DNA from: a virus
Taxonomy: Duplodnaviria > Caudoviricetes
Length of the DNA stretch: 64,000 bases
IMG/VR virus record: IMGVR_UViG_2724679183_000002
Location: 1 to 64,000 of that record
Direction: 5' to 3' (one strand)
Part shown: in pieces, positions 1 through 55,699 of the stretch
How positions within the stretch are numbered: position 1 is the stretch's first letter
Layout of the letters: each line of letters starts with the position of its first letter
Position numbers and translations under genes: made by a program
Notes under the pieces: generated by a model
Database searches by the model: none
Seen by the model: only the letters and a program-made list of their open reading frames with translations
Told to the model about the DNA's origin: nothing

Positions 1-276
1 TTGTTTGAAAGTGAGTCTGAGCTCAGACGTATCAGAATTACGCTTGTTTGGATTGCGGTATTTTTACTGTTTGGGGCATGCAGCAATCACGAGACAGTTG
101 TGACGACCGATGACAGCGGTTCATCAGATGCCGGGCCGCAGACAGAAGGCGCGGTGCCGCTTGAAAATAATCACTTCGGCGTGGTTCAGGACGGCTATTT
201 GAAAATCTACCGGTACGAGGAAAAAAACAATAAAATTGAGCTGAAAAAAGAATCGTCACTGGATGAGCTTGAATAA
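1..276 (+). CDS. ymzC: YmzC-like small lipoprotein
   Basis: Resembles B. subtilis YmzC (MFESE.ELRRIR..LVWIAVFLLFGAC lipobox); correct position upstream of ymzA-nrdI. Confidence 0.8.
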   Translation: MFESESELRRIRITLVWIAVFLLFGACSNHETVVTTDDSGSSDAGPQTEGAVPLENNHFGVVQDGYLKIYRYEEKNNKIELKKESSLDELE

Positions 277-7024: not shown

Positions 7025-7142
7025 ACTTATGAAGTCTAAATAAAATCCTCATTTTAACGAAACATTTTTAGTCCAACTTGCTTGTTGTTCAAATTTAAAG
7101 TATCCTGATTGATGTATCATAGGGGTTTAACAGCCACTATAG

Positions 7143-40689: not shown

Positions 40690-41484
40690 TTAATTGCCAA
40701 CGTCTACGGATTTAGTTTGAGATTCTGTGTCAGAGCCAGGATCTGGATCAGCGACAAAGTTATCATCTCTGCTTGCTTCAATAACAACAGCCATCTCATC
40801 TGTGTCAGTATCGGCCAGCGCTTCAAATTTAATTTCTGGAGATAATGCATTACCGTTCTCAAGTGACATTTCAAATTCGCCTGAAGGGGATACGTTAGGA
40901 AATTGAATGTAGATATCGCTATAGACCTCTTCGGTATCAGGATTATAAGCAATTGTACGGTATTCAACTTCATATCGCTCAGAGAATTTGCTTGCCTTGA
41001 TAGCGAGTCGTCTGCCGATTTTGTTAATCTGGTACACTGCTGTTAACTTCTCTTTTGTTCCAGCAAATCCAGTTGGGATTAAGTAAGTACCATCAGTCGA
41101 TACAGGTGTCTTGTATGTAACACCTCTTTTATTATAGAAGGTCACATCACTTACCGGTTTACCTTTTAGAGTAACCGTATTTTTGTCATCAACAATCAGA
41201 CCATGTTCGCGGTCAAATACCTGAACTTTAGCTTCTTCTTCAATTGTTTCACCTTGTGTCATTGCCAACCATTCAAGGTCGAAAAATGCATTCTTGACAG
41301 TAAGATTAATTTCTTTTTCAGACTTCAAAATATAAAGTGGTTTATTCCCAATACCACCACGAAGCTTATCTTCAGAGATGGTTTGGGAGAATGAAGCTGT
41401 TTGTGCTTCTGCTGTGAATACAAGCTGACCATCAGATTTTCTTCTGAAATAAACATCAGCTGTATCTTGAATAACTGTTTTCAT
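40690..41484 (-). CDS. yomU: Major tail tube protein
   Basis: MKTVIQDTADVYF..KSDG, LRGGIGNKPL, KNAFFDLEWL; very close to the recalled 264-aa SPR/SPbeta tail tube sequence. Confidence 0.92.
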   Translation of the reverse strand: MKTVIQDTADVYFRRKSDGQLVFTAEAQTASFSQTISEDKLRGGIGNKPLYILKSEKEINLTVKNAFFDLEWLAMTQGETIEEEAKVQVFDREHGLIVDDKNTVTLKGKPVSDVTFYNKRGVTYKTPVSTDGTYLIPTGFAGTKEKLTAVYQINKIGRRLAIKASKFSERYEVEYRTIAYNPDTEEVYSDIYIQFPNVSPSGEFEMSLENGNALSPEIKFEALADTDTDEMAVVIEASRDDNFVADPDPGSDTESQTKSVDVGN

Positions 41485-47632: not shown

Positions 47633-49168
47633 CTATTCAGGCGTATTATTTCCATCTGAAGTTCTTGATTTTATTGTATTTTCATTTGTAGGAGTTTCTG
47701 TTGAAGATTGGCCAGCTTCTCCATTATTTGAAGAGCCGTCACCCATTGTATAGGATGTTTGGTATGGTTTAATTTTATCTTGGAGTTTAAGTTCTTCTGT
47801 TTCATAAAGGGTCTGTTCCAGATAGCTTTCCCAAGATACCCCAGCTAAATTGTCAATAACATGCTTAATAGACCAGCCTTTATCGTTTAATTTAATCAGG
47901 ATATCCATTTTCTCTTTCAGAGTGAGTGGCTTGTCTTTATCATAATTCATATAATAGTTGTCTTTTTGACTGTCCGGTAAAACAAGATTGAATAACTTTT
48001 GATAAACCTCTTGTTCAATATCCTCCATTAAAACGCCAATACGCTTATAAAATGTATCCAAGTTTAATGAAGAAGTTGCGTAGTTCCCTCCATCACCATT
48101 TAAAAGGGATCCGGATAAACCGTAAGCAGATTGAATATCGCTGTTGATATGATCAAATTTTGCTCCATCTAGTCCATCTGCTTTAACATCTGGAAAGTTG
48201 ATGTCAGCAAAGTCAGGAATTGATACTACGGTTACTCCATCTTTTTGGTTCTTTTCTAAAGCTGATTTAACCCCGCCATGAATTTTTTGTTTAACTGCTT
48301 TAGGCAGCTTCATGTTGGTATATTCTCCATTACCTTTGTCCGTACCAATTGTTAATACTGCAACAGCGTTAATAATCTTATTTGCAATAGACCTCTCAAC
48401 ATCTTTAAGTTTCTTTTTGTGAAGCACATCATATAGACCTGGGGTAACCCAAGATGTTCCCAATCCTTGATTTCTCTTTAGCGTTCCTGTGCGTAGTGGA
48501 AAAGTTCTTTCTTGTGGCAATTCCTTATATCGATATTTCTCTCGATCTTTCATGAAGTTTTCATAATCGCTTTGTTTAATATAAGGGGAAAGGCTTTTTA
48601 ACAATTCATTTCTGCGATCATCTTTATACTTAGTGAACATCTCCATGTCAACTACACATACCCAGTCTCCATTTCTCCTAAAAGAGGGGAATACATATTC
48701 AATCTCATCAAAGATAAACGGATAGGGGCTCTTATCATCCCCAAGCCATATACCAACAAGAGTGCCGGCTGTAGCTACCTGTTTTAACAAATCTCTAGTA
48801 AGTCTTTTATGTTTGACCTTATGTAAGGATTTATTCAAAAGGGAAATATGCTTATCTGAAGACTTAGCTTTATTAAAGGAGTCAATTTTATAGTTGAGGG
48901 TAGGGAGGGCTTCAATCAATTCAAACAATTGGTGAATCTCTGCAGTTGAAATGTAAAAATACTCTGCAAGATCTTCGATTTCTTTCTGAAATTGATCTGG
49001 GTTAGAAAAATAGTTCTTTAATTGTTCGGCCTCAATTTCCGTAACAATGCCATTGGAAAACATATTTGAGATAAAGCCAGAAGCAAATGTAGAAGTATAA
49101 GTTGAATAGTCATTCAGCATTTGCTTATACTCTTCTGATTCAATGTCAACTTTGTTTAAGGTTACCAT
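47633..49168 (-). CDS. yonE: Portal protein
   Basis: 511 aa directly after terminase large subunit. Confidence 0.8.
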   Translation of the reverse strand: MVTLNKVDIESEEYKQMLNDYSTYTSTFASGFISNMFSNGIVTEIEAEQLKNYFSNPDQFQKEIEDLAEYFYISTAEIHQLFELIEALPTLNYKIDSFNKAKSSDKHISLLNKSLHKVKHKRLTRDLLKQVATAGTLVGIWLGDDKSPYPFIFDEIEYVFPSFRRNGDWVCVVDMEMFTKYKDDRRNELLKSLSPYIKQSDYENFMKDREKYRYKELPQERTFPLRTGTLKRNQGLGTSWVTPGLYDVLHKKKLKDVERSIANKIINAVAVLTIGTDKGNGEYTNMKLPKAVKQKIHGGVKSALEKNQKDGVTVVSIPDFADINFPDVKADGLDGAKFDHINSDIQSAYGLSGSLLNGDGGNYATSSLNLDTFYKRIGVLMEDIEQEVYQKLFNLVLPDSQKDNYYMNYDKDKPLTLKEKMDILIKLNDKGWSIKHVIDNLAGVSWESYLEQTLYETEELKLQDKIKPYQTSYTMGDGSSNNGEAGQSSTETPTNENTIKSRTSDGNNTPE

Positions 49169-49185: not shown

Positions 49186-50955
49186 TTAAAAATAGACTAG
49201 TTCATCTTCAACGTCATATTCAGTTTGTTTGTTTAACTGCCTTTCTAATACAGTGGCAATATAGTTGCCATAAGCCACCGAGCTATATCTGTCTTTTCGT
49301 TTACTCTTTGGCTCTTTAAGCTTAACTTGTCCGTTATCGCTATATTCAGCTTCTAAGTTGATCATTTCATTTATTAGAAGTGTAATCTGAGCATAGCTTG
49401 AAAGGAATTTCCCTTTAACTTCAGGGGATAACCCTTCATAGCCTTTAAATCTTTTCAGGTATTCTTTTCCTTCATTTTCATTGATAGGAATTTTGATTTT
49501 CCCTCGTTTGAATCCATCTTTGAGCAATACCGCAATTTCGCTGTTCAATTGTGCATTACCTTTAATGCTATAAATTACTTTTTTAGCATTTTGATAAGTA
49601 CAACGTTCAGCCATTCTTTCATCGTTAATACATGAAAATGGCTCGTATTCTTTTGCACGTTCTTTATCATATAAAGGCTGGCATAATGCATCATACACAC
49701 CAAGTCCGATGCTTTGAGTGTCCAATACAATATAATCGCAATCATAATCTTCGTATATTTGTCGAATTCTTGTTGCTTGAGTTCCTGTATGACCACCTAC
49801 GATGCTCTCCATGTAAACGATATGACGATCATATCCATTAGAGTTTGGAATCAGTCTGAAAACAGTGTAAACACTGGCATCATTATCCTTACCGGCCATT
49901 CCAGCGATATCATTGCTCACCAGTCTAATTTCACCAGGTTTCTTGCCTTCATATTTGAAGTTGGAATCTTTGATTAGGCTGTAATAGTCAGGTGGAAAGA
50001 GGGGAGAAGCAAGTTTGCGGTTCTTTTCTATGTCTTCAAATTTAAAATAAGCTTTTTCAGATTCACCAAACCAGAGGGCTTCCATTTCCATTGACCAACC
50101 AATAGGATCGAAGTCTTCTTCAGCCATTTCATCTCGAACCTGATCTTTATCCAAAAGTCCTTCTTTAATTGCGATCTGGTAAGGGAGGCCACAAACAAAG
50201 TATTTGGATCCTTTCATCATTGCATTATAGTATGTAATGAATCTGTTAAACGACCAATGAACTTTATACCAGCAGGATGACAGGTAAATTTCTTTGTTTC
50301 GCTCTTTGAGATGAGCATATTCCTCTTTTTCGAGATATTTAGGAGAACGGGGAGCAGTTAGGAATTTTCGGAGTACTTTACTGATGATTTCAAAATCAAC
50401 CATTCTGAATTCATCTACAATGAGGAGGTTTGCACGTTTGGAGCGTGCTCCATCATTTGAGGCAACGATTTTAATCCAGCTACCATTATGAAACTCAACT
50501 TTAGCGTCATTTGTTGAGGTTTTTAAGTCTTCTATTTCTCGCCTTAAATTAGGTGATTCTTTACGTAAGTCATCAATTTTTTCTATGACTTCACGTGCTT
50601 GTCCTTTTGTTCCTGATGCAATAACTATTTTAGTACCTGGGAAGAGGATGGCTTGTACACAGCAGTATACAGAGGTTAACCAAGTTTTACCCTGACCACG
50701 ACTGGCCAGGTACATAAAATAATGGTTATATACCATCATGTAAATTAAAATACATTGGAATAATTTAAGTGTAATACCCAAGTATTCTTTTACAAAACGA
50801 TGTGGATTTGCTCTATAGAATGAAGTCCATGCGCCAATACCATCCATCAATCGTTCGGATTTTGATTTCTTTTTAAAGTTGTTTCCCTTTTTAAAGATAT
50901 TAATTCCTCGACTGTGCTTATTGCGATCTGTTGTGAAATTTTTATGCGAGGTCAT
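49186..50955 (-). CDS. yonF: Terminase large subunit
   Basis: ASRGQGKT Walker A, LIVDEF Walker B, LSS motif III; nuclease [19 protein letters not shown]. Confidence 0.93.
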
Positions 50956-51862
50956 TTTCTCGATCCTCTTCTTCTGCAACAGGTTCTTCAACCGTGTGCT
51001 TATTCATTTCATCCCAATATTCCTCTGAATATTGATTTTTCAAACCAAGCATTCGGGACAGATGACCAAGGAAAAATACCTTAATGTATTTTCCGATTTT
51101 ATCAGGATCTTTCCACCTAGGCTCTGGTTCAGGAATGGGTCGTTCATTCTCATATTTTTTTATCAGAGTGCCAAAAGACTCTTGTTCAACTCCACTTGCT
51201 CCAGTTTCTTGAACCGGTTTTAAATTACTTGAGCCGAGTAGGTCTTGAAGAGTTTTTTGCTGCTGATCAACTTTTTCACCATTTTCACGCCGTTTGCGGA
51301 TATCTAGTCGAGTCAAACATATTTCATTTATAAGAAGTTCCATTCCTTTAGAGTCACATTCATACCTATTTGTGAAATCAATGTATTCATTCTGAAGCCA
51401 AATGTAATCTTCAACATCAAGACCCCGACCCCAGAATTGCATTAATTCCTCAATGTCTTCCTTAGAGATATCTTCTGTACTTTTAGCTAGTAATAGTTGT
51501 GTTGTGTATTCTTGTTCTTCTTCAAAGTCAAATTCACTATCTGCCCAAGTTTTTGACTTGTAATCTTTCATTCCGATATTTTTCATATACGTACCTAACA
51601 CATTACCATCTGATTTTTTCTTAGAGCCCGATTCGTTAACAGCGGAAACCCACAAGTCGTAAACAAAGGGGCGATCAATCATCCTCAAGATGTTTTGCAC
51701 ATTCTTCAAGTTATCTTTGTCTTTTTGGAATTCATTTTGAAGACAACTCTTACATACTGCCAGTTTGCCAGTTGCAGCATTAAAAGGGGATTCAGAGATA
51801 TAAAATTGGTTTGAATTTTGTTCTTTCCCACAGCATGAGCATTTGATTTTTTCTGTAGCCAT
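50942..51862 (-). CDS. yonG: Zn-finger protein, probable terminase small subunit
   Basis: CSCC..CKSC N-terminus; overlaps terL start. Confidence 0.65.
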
Positions 51863-51968
51863 TTTTCACCTCCAATTTATTGGTTCAAAAACACGTTTTA
51901 TAAAACGCCCAGCAATAGAGAGGGAGTAGAGATTTCTCAATCATCACTGGACGTTCTAAAAAAGTATT

Positions 51969-52469
51969 TTATTTATAAGTCAAGTTACCATTATTGGACA
52001 AAACAACCTTGGTTCCTTTTAAGATATCAGCAAGCGCATCAAACAAACCTTTTCCAATACCGTTTGCATCAATTATTAATTTACTCGGTCTTTTGTCTAT
52101 AATCATAGCTTTTATTTGAGTAGCCTGATGTTTAAACGTCCCATACTCCAATTTCTTAGAGATGTCTTCAATACGTGAATTATTTAAGTCAATAATTAAA
52201 AAGGTTGTACTTTCTCTTCCAGGATCAATTACAGCAATCCTTTCAGGAATATGACCCGCGCTTAATGTATAGTTCGTTCCGTTTAAGGGCTTAGTAGAAA
52301 TTTTGACATCTTGGTTCAAATGGTCATTTTTATTACTTTTCTCAAACCCAATACTTTTATGTAGACTTGTCAGAGCATCTTTTAATTCTCTGTTACAAAG
52401 GTAACCACTATCATTAATTTCTTTCAGTAGTTTTACATATTCCCAAAGCACTTTAGTTTCTTCTTTCAA
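51969..52469 (-). CDS. yonH: Stand-alone terminase-nuclease-like protein
   Basis: IAVIDPG and LIIDANGIGKGLFDAL resemble Ter[17 protein letters not shown]; name by synteny. Confidence 0.65.
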   Translation of the reverse strand: MKEETKVLWEYVKLLKEINDSGYLCNRELKDALTSLHKSIGFEKSNKNDHLNQDVKISTKPLNGTNYTLSAGHIPERIAVIDPGRESTTFLIIDLNNSRIEDISKKLEYGTFKHQATQIKAMIIDKRPSKLIIDANGIGKGLFDALADILKGTKVVLSNNGNLTYK

Positions 52470-52501
52470 TCTTCATCATTCCTCATCGTAATGTTTATAT
52501 T

Positions 52502-52699
52502 TTAGTAGTTTGTCCAGACAGTCTCTTTAACTTCATCTTTAGTTAAATGACTAAATTTGTCCCAATCTTTTTCGTGAACATTAAAGTTGAATTTGCTGAG
52601 CAAAAGCTTTACATCCTCAACTGTTTTAACTTTGTCAAAGTCAATTTCTCTGTATTTGATTTTTTCCGAACGTGCAACTGCGGACATAATCATACTCAT
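52502..52699 (-). CDS. Small hypothetical protein
   Basis: 65 aa, GGGGGG RBS, IDFDKVKTVEDVK motif. Confidence 0.65.
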   Translation of the reverse strand: MSMIMSAVARSEKIKYREIDFDKVKTVEDVKLLLSKFNFNVHEKDWDKFSHLTKDEVKETVWTNY

Positions 52700-52738
52700 A
52701 AAAATCCCCCCATTGATTTGGATAAAATTAAAGTTTTA

Positions 52739-53194
52739 TTAATAGTGAATTTTAAAGAATTCGTTATCTAATGGGTTTACTTTAAAAATCAAATCTAAAC
52801 CTGATACTTCTCCATTAACACCTTTAAGTTCTGCTCTAGAAATAATTTCGACATTGTTAAATTCTAAAGTAACCTTATGTGACTTTGATGTCTCAAGATG
52901 ACGGCCAATTGTTTCAGCTAATAATTTGAATTCAGAGCGAGGAGTTTCTTTTAAAACTGAAATATATTGTTTCTTCCCTAACTTTGATTCAAAGGAGGTA
53001 GGGGATTTATAATCACCTAAAAATTTAAGCACATCAAAATTGAGCAGAGCGTTTTTTGCAAAAATTAAATACGTTTCATGTTCATCGCTATAAAAAATTT
53101 CAACATCTTGAAGAGTCGTTAAATCAATTAAAGATTCTTCAGTTTTTCCATCATACAAATGAAGGTTATACACTTCGTGCATTGCTAAATCCAA
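52739..53194 (-). CDS. Truncated tail-tube-like protein
   Basis: Collinear motif similarity to the 40690-41484 product (see findings); RBS AAGGAGAG. Confidence 0.6.
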   Translation of the reverse strand: MDLAMHEVYNLHLYDGKTEESLIDLTTLQDVEIFYSDEHETYLIFAKNALLNFDVLKFLGDYKSPTSFESKLGKKQYISVLKETPRSEFKLLAETIGRHLETSKSHKVTLEFNNVEIISRAELKGVNGEVSGLDLIFKVNPLDNEFFKIHY

Positions 53195-53303
53195 ATTTAT
53201 TCTCTCCTTTAAGATATAGACTCAGAAATTACCTTCTTAAATTCTTCCGAAAATTGACCCCAATAAATAGATAGTTCGTTTATAAATGAAGCAATGCTCA
53301 ATA

Positions 53304-53678
53304 TTAATCCTCCTTTATGTAATGCGATACACGTTCAGATAATTTCTTATGCATCAATCGAAGTGAAGTTCTAAGAAAACCTAAAGTTCTACTTAATTCT
53401 CCGAAAACACAACTTAAACTATGATAAGCTTTAAAATCACTTTTATTAAATGAAGTAGCAATAAAGGTTTTGAGATTTTCGATTTCAGATGAAATTAACT
53501 TATTCATATTTGCCAAGTATTTAATTTCACTCATGTCTTGAGTATTTATCAATTTCATGTACTCACATAATGATTTGGCGACAGTTTTATATGCAGGATG
53601 ATTACCTTCTTTACGTAGTTCAGACAGCTTACTTAAGCAATTACCGATATTTTCTTCGATGAAATCTTTATTTTCCAT
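53304..53678 (-). CDS. Helical hypothetical protein with internal duplication
   Basis: Two ~45-aa helical units each with a central AY; RBS AAGGAG. Confidence 0.65.
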   Translation of the reverse strand: MENKDFIEENIGNCLSKLSELRKEGNHPAYKTVAKSLCEYMKLINTQDMSEIKYLANMNKLISSEIENLKTFIATSFNKSDFKAYHSLSCVFGELSRTLGFLRTSLRLMHKKLSERVSHYIKED

Positions 53679-53718
53679 AATCGTTCTCCTTGAAAGCGAT
53701 TGGTCGCAACCCTATATT

Positions 53719-54918
53719 TTATTTTTCATTCTTAAATCTAATTATGTATGTAGCTTCAATTCCTTCATCGTTAAACACCATAAACTTTTGAGACGGTTTT
53801 GTGCCAAAGCGTCCCTGCATGGCATAATCATCCGCACCGACAAGCGCGCCGTTTACTACAACTGTTGTGCTGCCGTACTCTTTTTCATAATTGTGATGAA
53901 TATGACCACCGAATATGTAAGAAGGGATATAGCCAAGCAATTGGGGTAATCGTGTTACACACTGATCAACACGATCGTAGTGGCCGTGCACAAACACGAC
54001 TTCCTGATTGTTGATTTTAGCGGGGATGAAGCCGTCTTGCTCAGGTTCAATGGAGATGTTCTTTATATCTTTCAATCTGGCTTCAAGATACCAATTAATA
54101 AGATATTCAAAGTTTTCTTTAATCCCCACATCATTTTTAGAAGGGGAGAGGCGACCGTGATTACCAGCCACATTGTAGAATTTAACCTCTTGAAACTCGC
54201 TTGCCATCATAGCCAACACCTCAGCAAGTGATTCTGAGACATATTTTATTTGTTCTACAGCATCTTCATTGGCCTGAACTCTTGTAGACACATGAATAAG
54301 ACCTCCGATTAAATCACCGAGGTTTGCCACGTGTAGTGTGGAAATATGATTCTGTTTACCGTACTCAATAACTTTGTTGGTCAGGTGCTCTACACGCTCA
54401 TTAAAGATTTCTTTATTGAATTTATTGATGCGGTTGTCAATTTCCATTCCGAAGTGCCAATCACTGAAAAGAGCAAGTCCATGTTTTTCAGTAATAGCAG
54501 GTGATGGGAAGGTGAAGCGAAGAGGTCTTTTTGACTCTAGAGATGCAATGGCTTGTACAACATCATCTTTAATTTTTTCAAACCGTGCTTGATTGGCGAT
54601 GAATTTTCGGTATTCTCTTTTTTGATCTCGGGCTTTGATTGTTTGTTTTTCGGATTCAATGCGGATTTCTTCGTGTTTTTGTTGAACTTCTTTGTTCATA
54701 TTCTTTGAGATAAAATAATCGTGCCAGCGCTCATATTGTTTAAAGTCTTTACGCCACTTGCTTTCATCATAGTTGGTTCCTTGATCCTTATTTAAAAGGG
54801 AAGCAATTGTTTTTGTGTCAATGTGATAAGTATCTTTGTTTTTGAAAAGCCTAATATGATAATCAGTGAATGATTCGTCTTTTTCTCGTTGCAACACAGG
54901 ATCTAAAATAGCTGTCAT
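53719..54918 (-). CDS. yonJ: Calcineurin-like metallophosphoesterase
   Basis: FSDWHFG, LGDLI, GNHGR, VHGH, GHIHH motifs. Confidence 0.88.
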   Translation of the reverse strand: MTAILDPVLQREKDESFTDYHIRLFKNKDTYHIDTKTIASLLNKDQGTNYDESKWRKDFKQYERWHDYFISKNMNKEVQQKHEEIRIESEKQTIKARDQKREYRKFIANQARFEKIKDDVVQAIASLESKRPLRFTFPSPAITEKHGLALFSDWHFGMEIDNRINKFNKEIFNERVEHLTNKVIEYGKQNHISTLHVANLGDLIGGLIHVSTRVQANEDAVEQIKYVSESLAEVLAMMASEFQEVKFYNVAGNHGRLSPSKNDVGIKENFEYLINWYLEARLKDIKNISIEPEQDGFIPAKINNQEVVFVHGHYDRVDQCVTRLPQLLGYIPSYIFGGHIHHNYEKEYGSTTVVVNGALVGADDYAMQGRFGTKPSQKFMVFNDEGIEATYIIRFKNEK

Positions 54919-54929
54919 TCAGTCACCAC

Positions 54930-55139
54930 CTACTCAGAGAGTCCTTCAGTTTCTAGGGGTACAACTTCACTATCGCTTTTTAGAGTAAAATCAATTGGTT
55001 CTGTTTTGCTTTCAATCTCTCTTAGATATTTAGACAGTGAGTGAATATGAATGCCATCATTTTTATACTCAATGATTTGATCTTCATCTACATTTACAGT
55101 GCATTTTTCAAAAGAGTATTCTTTCTTACCTTTAGCCAA
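54930..55139 (-). CDS. yonK: YonK-like small protein
   Basis: TTG start after GGAGG; AKGKKEYSFEK N-terminus; first gene of late cluster. Confidence 0.7.
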   Translation of the reverse strand: MAKGKKEYSFEKCTVNVDEDQIIEYKNDGIHIHSLSKYLREIESKTEPIDFTLKSDSEVVPLETEGLSE

Positions 55140-55168
55140 ATTTGATTCCTCCAATTATTTGTTTTATT

Positions 55169-55308
55169 TACGTACAATAAGCTCCTTCGGAAGCCCGATG
55201 ATCCGAAGCATCGGTAACGTCCGAGAAGGGGATATAAAGGAGATGAAAGATAATAAGTCGGATAGGCGTTGGGGAAACGCCCGAAGGAGATTATTGATAA
55301 CTTGCGTA
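55169..55308 (-). ncRNA. Predicted four-way-junction RNA with C/U-rich loops
   Basis: Closing stem CTCCTTCGG/CCGAAGGAG and three inner arms, one capped by cUUCGg on the minus strand. Confidence 0.6.
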
Positions 55309-55416
55309 CATATGTATTACAGACCTATTCCAGTTATCAAGAGGTGCTCTGTATGGTAAAATAATACACAATAGGTATAATGAAGTGTAGATGAAATTTG
55401 TAAAAGAGGTGTTTTT

Positions 55417-55596
55417 TTGAGAGACAAAGTTTTGAATGCCTTTATTATAATAGGTGTTTTGTTGATAGTTGGAGCGGTTACTGTTTTTAAAGATTTTGAA
55501 TATCACCAATATCTTCGTTTTGGTGGGGCAATATTGATTGCTTTTGGCTATATGTTTGGTTATGACAAAGTAAAAGCTAAAAAAAAGAGTAAATGA
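55417..55596 (+). CDS. 59-aa two-TM membrane protein (missing from ORF track)
   Basis: Hand translation MRDKVLNAFIIIGVLLIVGAVTVF...FGGAILIAFGYMFGYDKVKAKKKSK; RBS GAGGTG. Confidence 0.7.
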   Translation: MRDKVLNAFIIIGVLLIVGAVTVFKDFEYHQYLRFGGAILIAFGYMFGYDKVKAKKKSK

Positions 55597-55699
55597 CTTT
55601 TAAATTCTATTGTTCTAGTTATTTTCTTACCCCTCTCACCTACACCAGTAACTCACGTAGGAACGTAAGCCTTCGGATCGTCAAGCAAATCTGAAAATA

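Follow-up and report, generated by a model that had tools for sequence, protein, structure and literature searches.

A hypervariable accessory slot at the head of an SPbeta-type late operon, with probable domain-level paralogs of two immune-sensed phage proteins

Bacterial sensors of late phage proteins, such as DSR2, which senses the tail tube, and Avs, which senses terminase and portal, form a major arm of bacterial immunity, and we know of few phage countermeasures to them. A cluster of small genes in a provirus of the SPbeta group raises the question of whether a phage might meet such sensors with partial copies of the very proteins that they sense. The window analyzed here comprises 64,000 nucleotides, the first 64 kb of the 140,932-base provirus record IMGVR_UViG_2724679183_000002, and holds five co-oriented minus-strand genes between yonJ and yonG, designated A, micro-ORF, B, C, and D in that order. 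The first-pass annotation had described four cassette-like genes at this place, likened one to the nuclease domain of the large terminase (TerL) and another to the tail-tube core, and read the group as an array of decoys. All four open reading frames (ORFs) were found where they had been placed, between yonJ and the terminase genes; the tally becomes five with a 30-residue micro-ORF that had been overlooked. The analyses described below indicate that the interval is very probably a hypervariable accessory slot heading an SPbeta-type late operon for packaging and morphogenesis, in which two of the five small genes are domain-level paralogs of immune-sensed late proteins.

Gene B (52739–53194, minus strand) encodes a protein of 151 amino acids (aa) that appears to be a stand-alone paralog of the tail tube protein (TTP), confined to its domain 1. 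The AF2 (AlphaFold2) model, built on a 13-row alignment (pLDDT 69.5, pTM 0.67), is mostly β and has the β sandwich of tail tubes. A Foldseek search of the PDB with this model (E 4.8e-5) returned seven matches at E ≤ 0.001, all of them SPR TTP chains, then DSR2–TTP complexes. Structural alignment with TTP covers 137 residues over TTP positions 5..236 at about 10–13% identity, and via such alignment B is matched to 99–101 of the 108–112 residues that are ordered in DSR2-bound TTP chains. B does not have the two-domain architecture (~264 aa) of the TTP family, and a distance of 11.3 kb separates its gene, which is outside the tail module, from that of the tube; based on the published domain limits and the alignment, B corresponds to TTP domain 1, less the domain 2 insertion and ~28 C-terminal residues.

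Sequence searches point weakly to the same family. The single, weak PHROGs match is phrog_2729 (E 2.9e-4, residues 86–142 only), which the phage's own TTP matches at E 3e-63; 11 of 13 B-family members match it at E ≤ 0.1, with no second family turning up repeatedly. Of the B homologs, 2 of 14 carry the precomputed Pfam label PF27173, versus 34 of 34 TTP homologs, and B itself has no match in Pfam, NCBIfam, or PADLOC. At the level of the predicted model, the tail-tube fold of B is firm, and a closest relationship to its own TTP is only moderately supported. The likeness to the tail tube seen at first pass is thus borne out by fold and, weakly, by sequence.

The phage's own tail tube gene (40690–41484, minus strand) is an SPR-type allele. 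Its product matches TTP chains in the PDB (8k98 and others) at E 6.5e-146 in phmmer, and the gene is 86.7% identical to that of SPR and 41% identical to yomU of SPbeta. According to published reports, the SPR-type allele activates DSR2 (bioRxiv 10.1101/2021.12.14.472415), DSR2 binds monomeric TTP via domain 1 (residues 1–77 and 171–264) with domain 2 being flexible (PMC11290490), and TTP residues 80–167 were unseen in one DSR2 complex (PMC11263360). The first-pass annotation's premise, namely sensing of the SPR tail tube by DSR2, is likewise in print, in sources that also describe a small phage protein able to fill the pocket without activating the sensor (PMC11087589, PMC10973363); one of them states that this protein, DSAD1, "mimics TTP to trap DSR2" (PMC10973363). 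Because its TTP is 86.7% identical to that of SPR, the phage carries the DSR2-activating type, and it is predicted from the sequence to set off DSR2 in the absence of an inhibitor of its own.

One could ask whether B is such an inhibitor. The slot genes would be read together with the late operon, B would occupy, as DSAD1 does, the site at which a DSR2-type sensor receives the tail tube and would leave the sensor off, and a phage that itself makes the activating tube protein would thereby be shielded. Occupation of the pocket is attractive because B corresponds to the sensor-bound domain, because the phage has the activating allele, and because DSAD1 sets a precedent. By this analogy it ranks first among the readings of B, as a tentative proposal. 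Competitive mimicry also ranks first overall as a mechanism for the slot, and we regard it as possible rather than probable.

Gene D (51969–52469, minus strand; 166 aa) is a divergent YonH. It matches phrog_31869, the YonH family, at E 5.4e-24 over residues 3–165 and sits directly upstream of yonG, as yonH does in SPbeta; the protein is 31% identical to SPbeta YonH, versus ~90% identity to SPbeta in the flanking yonG DNA. The model (pLDDT 74.2) predicts helices at residues 3–20 and 26–39, a disordered linker at 43–73, and then the order b-b-b-a-b-a-b-b. Residues 3–39 form a predicted helical hairpin, and residues 77–165 a C-terminal RNase H–like half domain resembling the TerL nuclease, with elements b1-b2-b3-a1-b4-a2 plus two short strands that do not make up a complete RNase H–like fold.

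Homology of D to the TerL nuclease domain (PF17289) emerges from several comparisons. D aligns with residues 405–440 of the TerL encoded by the same phage (BLASTP E 4e-5 over 36 aa), hhalign connects the YonH family with TerL (E 1.7e-5, probability 78.7%, 60 columns), and a YonH family profile run over the 141-kb record recovers only D and TerL bases 49675–49809 (residues ~395–440; E 2.2e-4). SPbeta YonH reaches PF17289 at E 0.015, under the Pfam cutoff, over model positions 1–87 of 155; 7 of 13 YonH-family members show a match at E ≤ 0.1 to a terminase PHROG; and a hidden Markov model (HMM) of the C-terminal domain matches the same motif in six of eight TerL-sized proteins of related loci. 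Taken together, the BLASTP, hhalign, and own-genome profile results confirm, with moderate strength, the nuclease likeness that had been noticed at the outset. A Foldseek search of the PDB with D gave nothing at E ≤ 0.001 and ranked ribosomal uL18, Pelota, and RuvC-like domains over a terminase. An exhaustive search of 1.84 billion proteins gave 12 matches and no full-length terminase; most of the 12 are proteins of 90–223 aa with the same C-terminal domain, and one, a 1074-aa repeat protein, looks spurious. No ATPase family matches D; the packaging-ATPase fusion is absent, and the helical hairpin stands in its place. Two of the three catalytic positions are mostly kept as acidic residues in the YonH family (D82 in 9 and D134 in 11 of 12 rows). 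Since the protein ends before the third acidic site, D is probably not a nuclease on its own.

The C-terminal domain is also the part of YonH that is exchanged. In a 174-aa variant at the YonH position (L005:2566–3090, L002:3566–4090, and L006:2578–3102, all minus strand), the first 38 aa are 71–76% identical to YonH and are followed by an unrelated domain with a Walker A–like motif. As far as sequences tell, the family at the YonH position undergoes a modular swap of its C-terminal domain. The notion that the 174-aa variant mimics the TerL ATPase was set aside as an idea only: nothing but the Walker A–like motif aligns (BLASTP E 0.36), and the PHROG matches are to families of unknown function. 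Among scans of viral contigs with remote homologs of the D domain, those with P0028 and P0025 found nothing, and that with P0021 led to loci L008 and L009. The former, an SPbeta-like viral contig, contains a 1021-aa terminase-like ORF (L008:7508–10573, plus strand) that is ~440 aa longer than its relatives, a difference that suggests inserted sequence, possibly an intein or additional domain.

How variable the slot is becomes apparent from its relatives. A megablast search with positions 50900–55200 returned 25 Bacillus phage records, all SPbeta-like, none of which spans 80% of the query because of the variable middle of the stretch. Among 12 annotated phages, the slot shows at least nine arrangements, and none equals that of the window. 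SPbeta has YonH and an opposite-strand yonI; SPR, a micro-ORF and YonH; BUCT082, B and YonH; Goe11 and SPbetaL8, B and the 174-aa gene; BUCT083, B, a 123-aa gene, and the 174-aa gene; SPbetaL1, a 109-aa gene and YonH; SPbetaL5 and Goe12, a micro-ORF, a gene of 109–121 aa, and the 174-aa gene; and SPbetaL7, a micro-ORF and the 174-aa gene. SPbetaL4 and SPbetaL6, both plaque-forming, have a 241-aa gene on the opposite strand and no YonH-type gene, and tblastn on the loci found no such gene in either of them or in L034. B is present in 5 of the 25 phage records and absent from 20; BUCT082 combines B with the activating tube allele, and SPR has the activating allele without B.

The survey was extended by 19 further B-carrying loci (18 IMG/VR contigs and one genome contig). 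Here, B lies directly after yonJ in 14 loci, after a micro-ORF in 2, and after A and a micro-ORF in 3, and the YonH position is occupied most often by the 174-aa type (11 loci), then by the SPbeta type (6) and the window's type (1), and is empty in one locus. The YonH types are found with three terminase types in nearly every combination, three TerL types being recorded with the 174-aa type and two with the SPbeta type; in L007, a copy of D 89% identical to that of the window stands ahead of a terminase only 24% identical to the window's. B and YonH are accessory, freely reassorting cassettes, not essential genes. Both B and the YonH-type genes are absent from several plaque-forming phages, in keeping with this accessory status. 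Located at the front of the late operon, the slot is a mosaic and a hotspot of recombination, and the description of its genes as cassette-like holds across the annotated relatives.

Two observations on these relatives should be recorded. The 241-aa gene of SPbetaL4 and SPbetaL6 (L003:2647–3372 and L010:2647–3372, plus strand) encodes an N-terminal Cys-rich, zinc ribbon–like segment and an R-x4-H motif, a possible sign of a HEPN-like domain; its sole match is phrog_19381, a family of unknown function, and it may be a moron or defense gene. Locus L016 (NZ_JBHVTC010000023.1) is a 133-kb contig labeled Streptomyces sp. that contains an SPbeta-like phage whose yonJ, A, micro-ORF, and B are 85–97% identical to those of the Bacillus phage studied here, a label that likely reflects assembly contamination or mislabeling.

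The remaining slot genes bear on whether the locus as a whole is devoted to mimicry. A (53304–53678, minus strand) is an ORF of 124 codons with an AAGGAGA site; copies at 85–87% identity occur in 3 of the 19 related loci, always in the order A, micro-ORF, B. No match to A was found in phage records, PDB, Pfam, PHROG, or PADLOC, and its top score in Atlas, 0.79, is a lead only. The micro-ORF (53209–53301, minus strand; 30 aa) starts 2 nt after A, with a strong AAGGAGG ribosome site placed 7 nt before a TTG start. It is 50–58% identical over 26 aa to annotated 31-aa genes of SPbetaL5 and SPbetaL7 and has matches in SPR and in 5 of the 19 loci; a conserved micro-ORF of 30–31 aa right after yonJ is found in many SPbeta-like phages. 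C (52502–52699, minus strand; 65 aa) has a G-rich ribosome site, and a copy at 91% identity is present in 1 of the 19 loci (L017); phages, PDB, Pfam, PHROGs, and Atlas yielded no match to C.

None of 50,697 phage records matches A or C, and A, C, and the micro-ORF resemble no ORF in the window, structural proteins included, and no solved chain. PADLOC detected no defense or antidefense family among the five slot proteins, for which NCBIfam and Pfam gave sub-threshold noise only. The proposal of a coherent decoy array therefore finds no support here, given that A and C resemble no structural protein, phage record, or solved structure. DSAD1 itself was considered as a slot gene and rejected, as A, B, C, D, the 123-aa cassette, YonI, and the 174-aa variant match no solved chain. 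A, B, C, and D have no PDB sequence match beyond chance, and no DSAD1 chain appears among the listed structural matches for B. One report places DSAD1 (120 aa) in another five-gene segment (bioRxiv 10.1101/2021.12.14.472415); the Gad1/Gad2 locus also lies elsewhere, at ~109.5 kb in SPbetaL7.

With regard to expression, all five slot genes have Shine-Dalgarno–like sequences and are separated by spacers of 2–40 nt. On the minus strand between 51700 and 55700 no terminator-like site was detected, and promoter-like sites over the same interval are not enriched (16, versus 18.3 in shuffled sequence). The slot is likely co-transcribed with yonK–yonJ and the terminase genes. In two published studies, SPbeta yonH, which DNA damage induces, served to mark late genes (bioRxiv 10.1101/2021.09.20.460909), and yonH insertions were enriched among replication-arrest survivors in transposon sequencing (Tn-seq; PMC9836290). 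In three of four runs, contigs from two studies' RNA libraries join yonJ directly to B; these contigs are ~94% identical over B, derive from relatives without A and the micro-ORF, and are a weak hint given that such libraries can hold DNA. The RNA runs that were found contained only 5–7% of the sampled words, and the parts they leave uncovered are uninformative.

The first-pass annotation had further reported that three of its four genes end at sites resembling TAAAA-N6-TTTTA. The slot contains one exact site, at 52723–52738 in the spacer between B and C, which does not bear this out; a one-mismatch site (51885–51900) lies between D and yonG, ~70 nt from the stop codon of D. Across the window, seven exact sites are present versus 0.72 expected (at 7041, 9681, 18798, 25339, 36949, 40152, and 52723), five of them in short intergenic spacers and four of these in the minus-strand late operon, as read from the ORF list. 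With one mismatch allowed, the count is 23 (16.8 expected), a number that 7 of 100 shuffles attain. Stop codons and A/T-rich spacers may be a simple source of the excess. The 106-nt spacer between D and yonG also holds a 14-nt perfect A/T-rich palindrome, CGTTTTA/TAAAACG (51894–51907); a T-rich run comes after it on the minus strand, and the element may act as a weak terminator or else as a binding site.

Several observations weigh against mimicry as the explanation of the slot. In sequence, B is tied only marginally to its own TTP (BLASTP E 0.57) and to the TTP family (hhalign E 0.0039, probability 8.5%), a B profile run over the phage's own genome gives no second match, and the models of B and D are both of middling confidence by pLDDT. 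B is conserved, with 61–95% identity and 66 invariant columns, which looks like purifying selection, not an arms race. B also shows no attachment to the allele it would shield: the SPR-type tube is present in 9 of the 15 IMG/VR or genome records tested, out of the 19 loci with B, and in 1 of 5 B-carrying phage records, and copies of B 95% identical to that of the window accompany tube proteins just 40% identical to the tube protein of this phage. An exclusive tie of B to the activating allele is accordingly not supported, B being seen with both alleles and without co-variation, in records that are related and hence no fair test. Furthermore, the domain that B retains is titled "tube-forming" in PDB entry 8z18. 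Judged by its model, B might co-assemble with the tube instead of staying out of it, and the earlier description of such copies as assembly-incompetent is unproven because B keeps this domain. Finally, YonH retains its position just before yonG, TerL, and portal despite identities of only 24–27% in the latter, a placement that fits a packaging function at least as well.

For D, these considerations shift the balance. A dispensable accessory or regulatory role in packaging, which conserved synteny, a conserved N-terminal hairpin, and swappable C-terminal domains fit better than a decoy, is the reading we would tentatively put first. A role of D as a decoy for TerL sensors is unlikely. Similarly improbable is the broader notion that the yonJ–yonG slot is a dedicated trigger-mimic locus, in which the swappable C-terminal domains at the YonH position (half TerL nuclease or P loop) would serve as decoys for terminase sensors.

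The most durable alternative extends such a role to both paralogs and takes them as helpers of assembly and packaging. YonH would be a dispensable accessory or regulatory subunit of the terminase, its hairpin docking on a conserved packaging partner and its half nuclease domain modulating TerL cutting, and B would be a tail-assembly factor or a minor tube-like component that, for example, caps or chaperones tube monomers. The constancy of the YonH position argues for this account: genes of this type directly precede yonG, TerL, and portal in 18 of the 19 B loci, in L007–L009, and in 10 of the 12 annotated phages, across three terminase types, and the N-terminal 38 aa are shared at 71–76% between the RNase H type and the 174-aa P-loop type, whose C-terminal domains are unrelated. 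B keeps the core tube fold, and tube-fold proteins fill several virion roles. The Tn-seq enrichment of yonH insertions after replication arrest also fits a lytic late operon (PMC9836290). However, SPbetaL4 and SPbetaL6 form plaques without a YonH-type gene in the slot, and B is missing from four-fifths (20 of 25) of the phage records. The reassortment of YonH types with TerL types and the lack of co-variation of B with the tube allele speak against a tight partnership with TerL or the tube, and both genes lie outside the tail module, that of B at its distance of 11.3 kb from the tube gene. We consider joint helpers doubtful.

Quite unlikely, in our view, is the absence of any common theme, with the slot serving as a dump of unrelated cassettes, the paralogy of B and D dating from old history, and their present functions being unrelated to tube or terminase. 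A, C, the micro-ORF, the 109–123-aa cassette, yonI, and the 241-aa gene of SPbetaL4 and SPbetaL6 are indeed unrelated to structural proteins, B is only about 10–13% identical to the tube protein, and no terminase is found among the 12 database matches of D. Yet chance alone would hardly make two of five slot genes paralogous to exactly two sensed late-protein classes, and B is conserved over its whole core domain. Prophage and satellite proteins that block the assembly of a rival exist. That the truncated paralogs are weapons of this kind, dominant-negative subunits poisoning tail or packaging assembly of co- or superinfecting SPbeta-like phages, is very unlikely: they are truncated copies of oligomerizing proteins in a hotspot common to co-circulating relatives, which recombine readily upon co-infection (bioRxiv 10.1101/2021.12.14.472415), but they lie on the strand of the late genes, where no separate promoter or terminator is conspicuous for them, so that they would meet their own tube and terminase first, and B, occurring with both tube alleles, follows no visible logic of self and non-self.

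The genes around the slot are those of an SPbeta-type late region, all on the minus strand. Upstream, the RNA polymerase gene yonO (57567–60077) and the HU-like yonN (57040–57315) are separated by a long non-coding stretch from yonK (54930–55154). This stretch amounts to ~1.7 kb without credible ORFs (55170–57030) and contains terminator-like minus-strand hairpins at 55725–55703 and 56131–56115. The upstream border of the slot is yonJ (53719–54918), annotated as such in SPBc2, which encodes a metallophosphoesterase/exonuclease (phrog_284 exonuclease, E 5.2e-75; Metallophos_2, E 1e-5). The downstream border is yonG (50942–51862; phrog_3314), which has an N-terminal Cys-rich segment and overlaps the start of TerL, encoded by yonF (49186–50991; Terminase_6N, TerL_ATPase); the portal gene follows (47633–49168).

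In the open literature, we found no description of B, of a tube-fold antidefense protein, or of the function or architecture of YonH; subscription journals and supplements were outside the search and could hold lists of candidate antidefense genes. YonH itself is a known gene, and the first structural reading of its family is given here. If B blocks a DSR2-type sensor, it would represent a counter-defense made by truncating the trigger itself. Were the slot a dedicated trigger-mimic locus, phages would counter pattern-recognition immunity with truncated paralogs of the sensed proteins. In either case, a genomic search rule would follow, by which truncated structural-protein paralogs in accessory slots point to antidefense genes and sensed proteins in any phage genome. 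Even if the decoy idea fails, the structural reading of YonH, its modular domain swap, and the late-operon recombination hotspot remain.

Small accessory proteins that bind virion-assembly proteins are familiar from prophages and satellites, in the form of tail assembly blockers and SaPI packaging interference; to our knowledge, such assembly-interference proteins have not been reported as truncated paralogs of their targets. The counterparts of the two paralogs can be stated more closely. Compared with the TerL nuclease domain (PF17289; E217 TerL nuclease, PDB 8dkr), D matches approximately positions 1–87 of 155, as mapped from SPbeta YonH, lacks the ATPase domain and the third acidic site, and has an extra N-terminal hairpin. 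With SPbeta YonH (phrog_31869) it shares length, position, and architecture at only 31% identity, and in some YonH relatives the C-terminal domain is swapped for a small P-loop domain. Compared with the TTP family (SPR TTP, SPbeta YomU, phrog_2729, PF27173), whose members have 264 aa, B has 151 aa, lacks domain 2 (residues ~80–170) and the C-terminal tail, is ~10–13% identical, and resides 11.3 kb off in an accessory slot, in a minority of relatives. The mechanism proposed for B is that of DSAD1 of SPbeta and phi3T, a small phage protein that prevents activation of DSR2 by lodging in the pocket of its C-terminal domain that receives the tail tube (PMC11087589, PMC10973363, PMC11263360). In contrast to DSAD1, whose fold is unrelated to that of the trigger, B would be derived by truncating the trigger itself.

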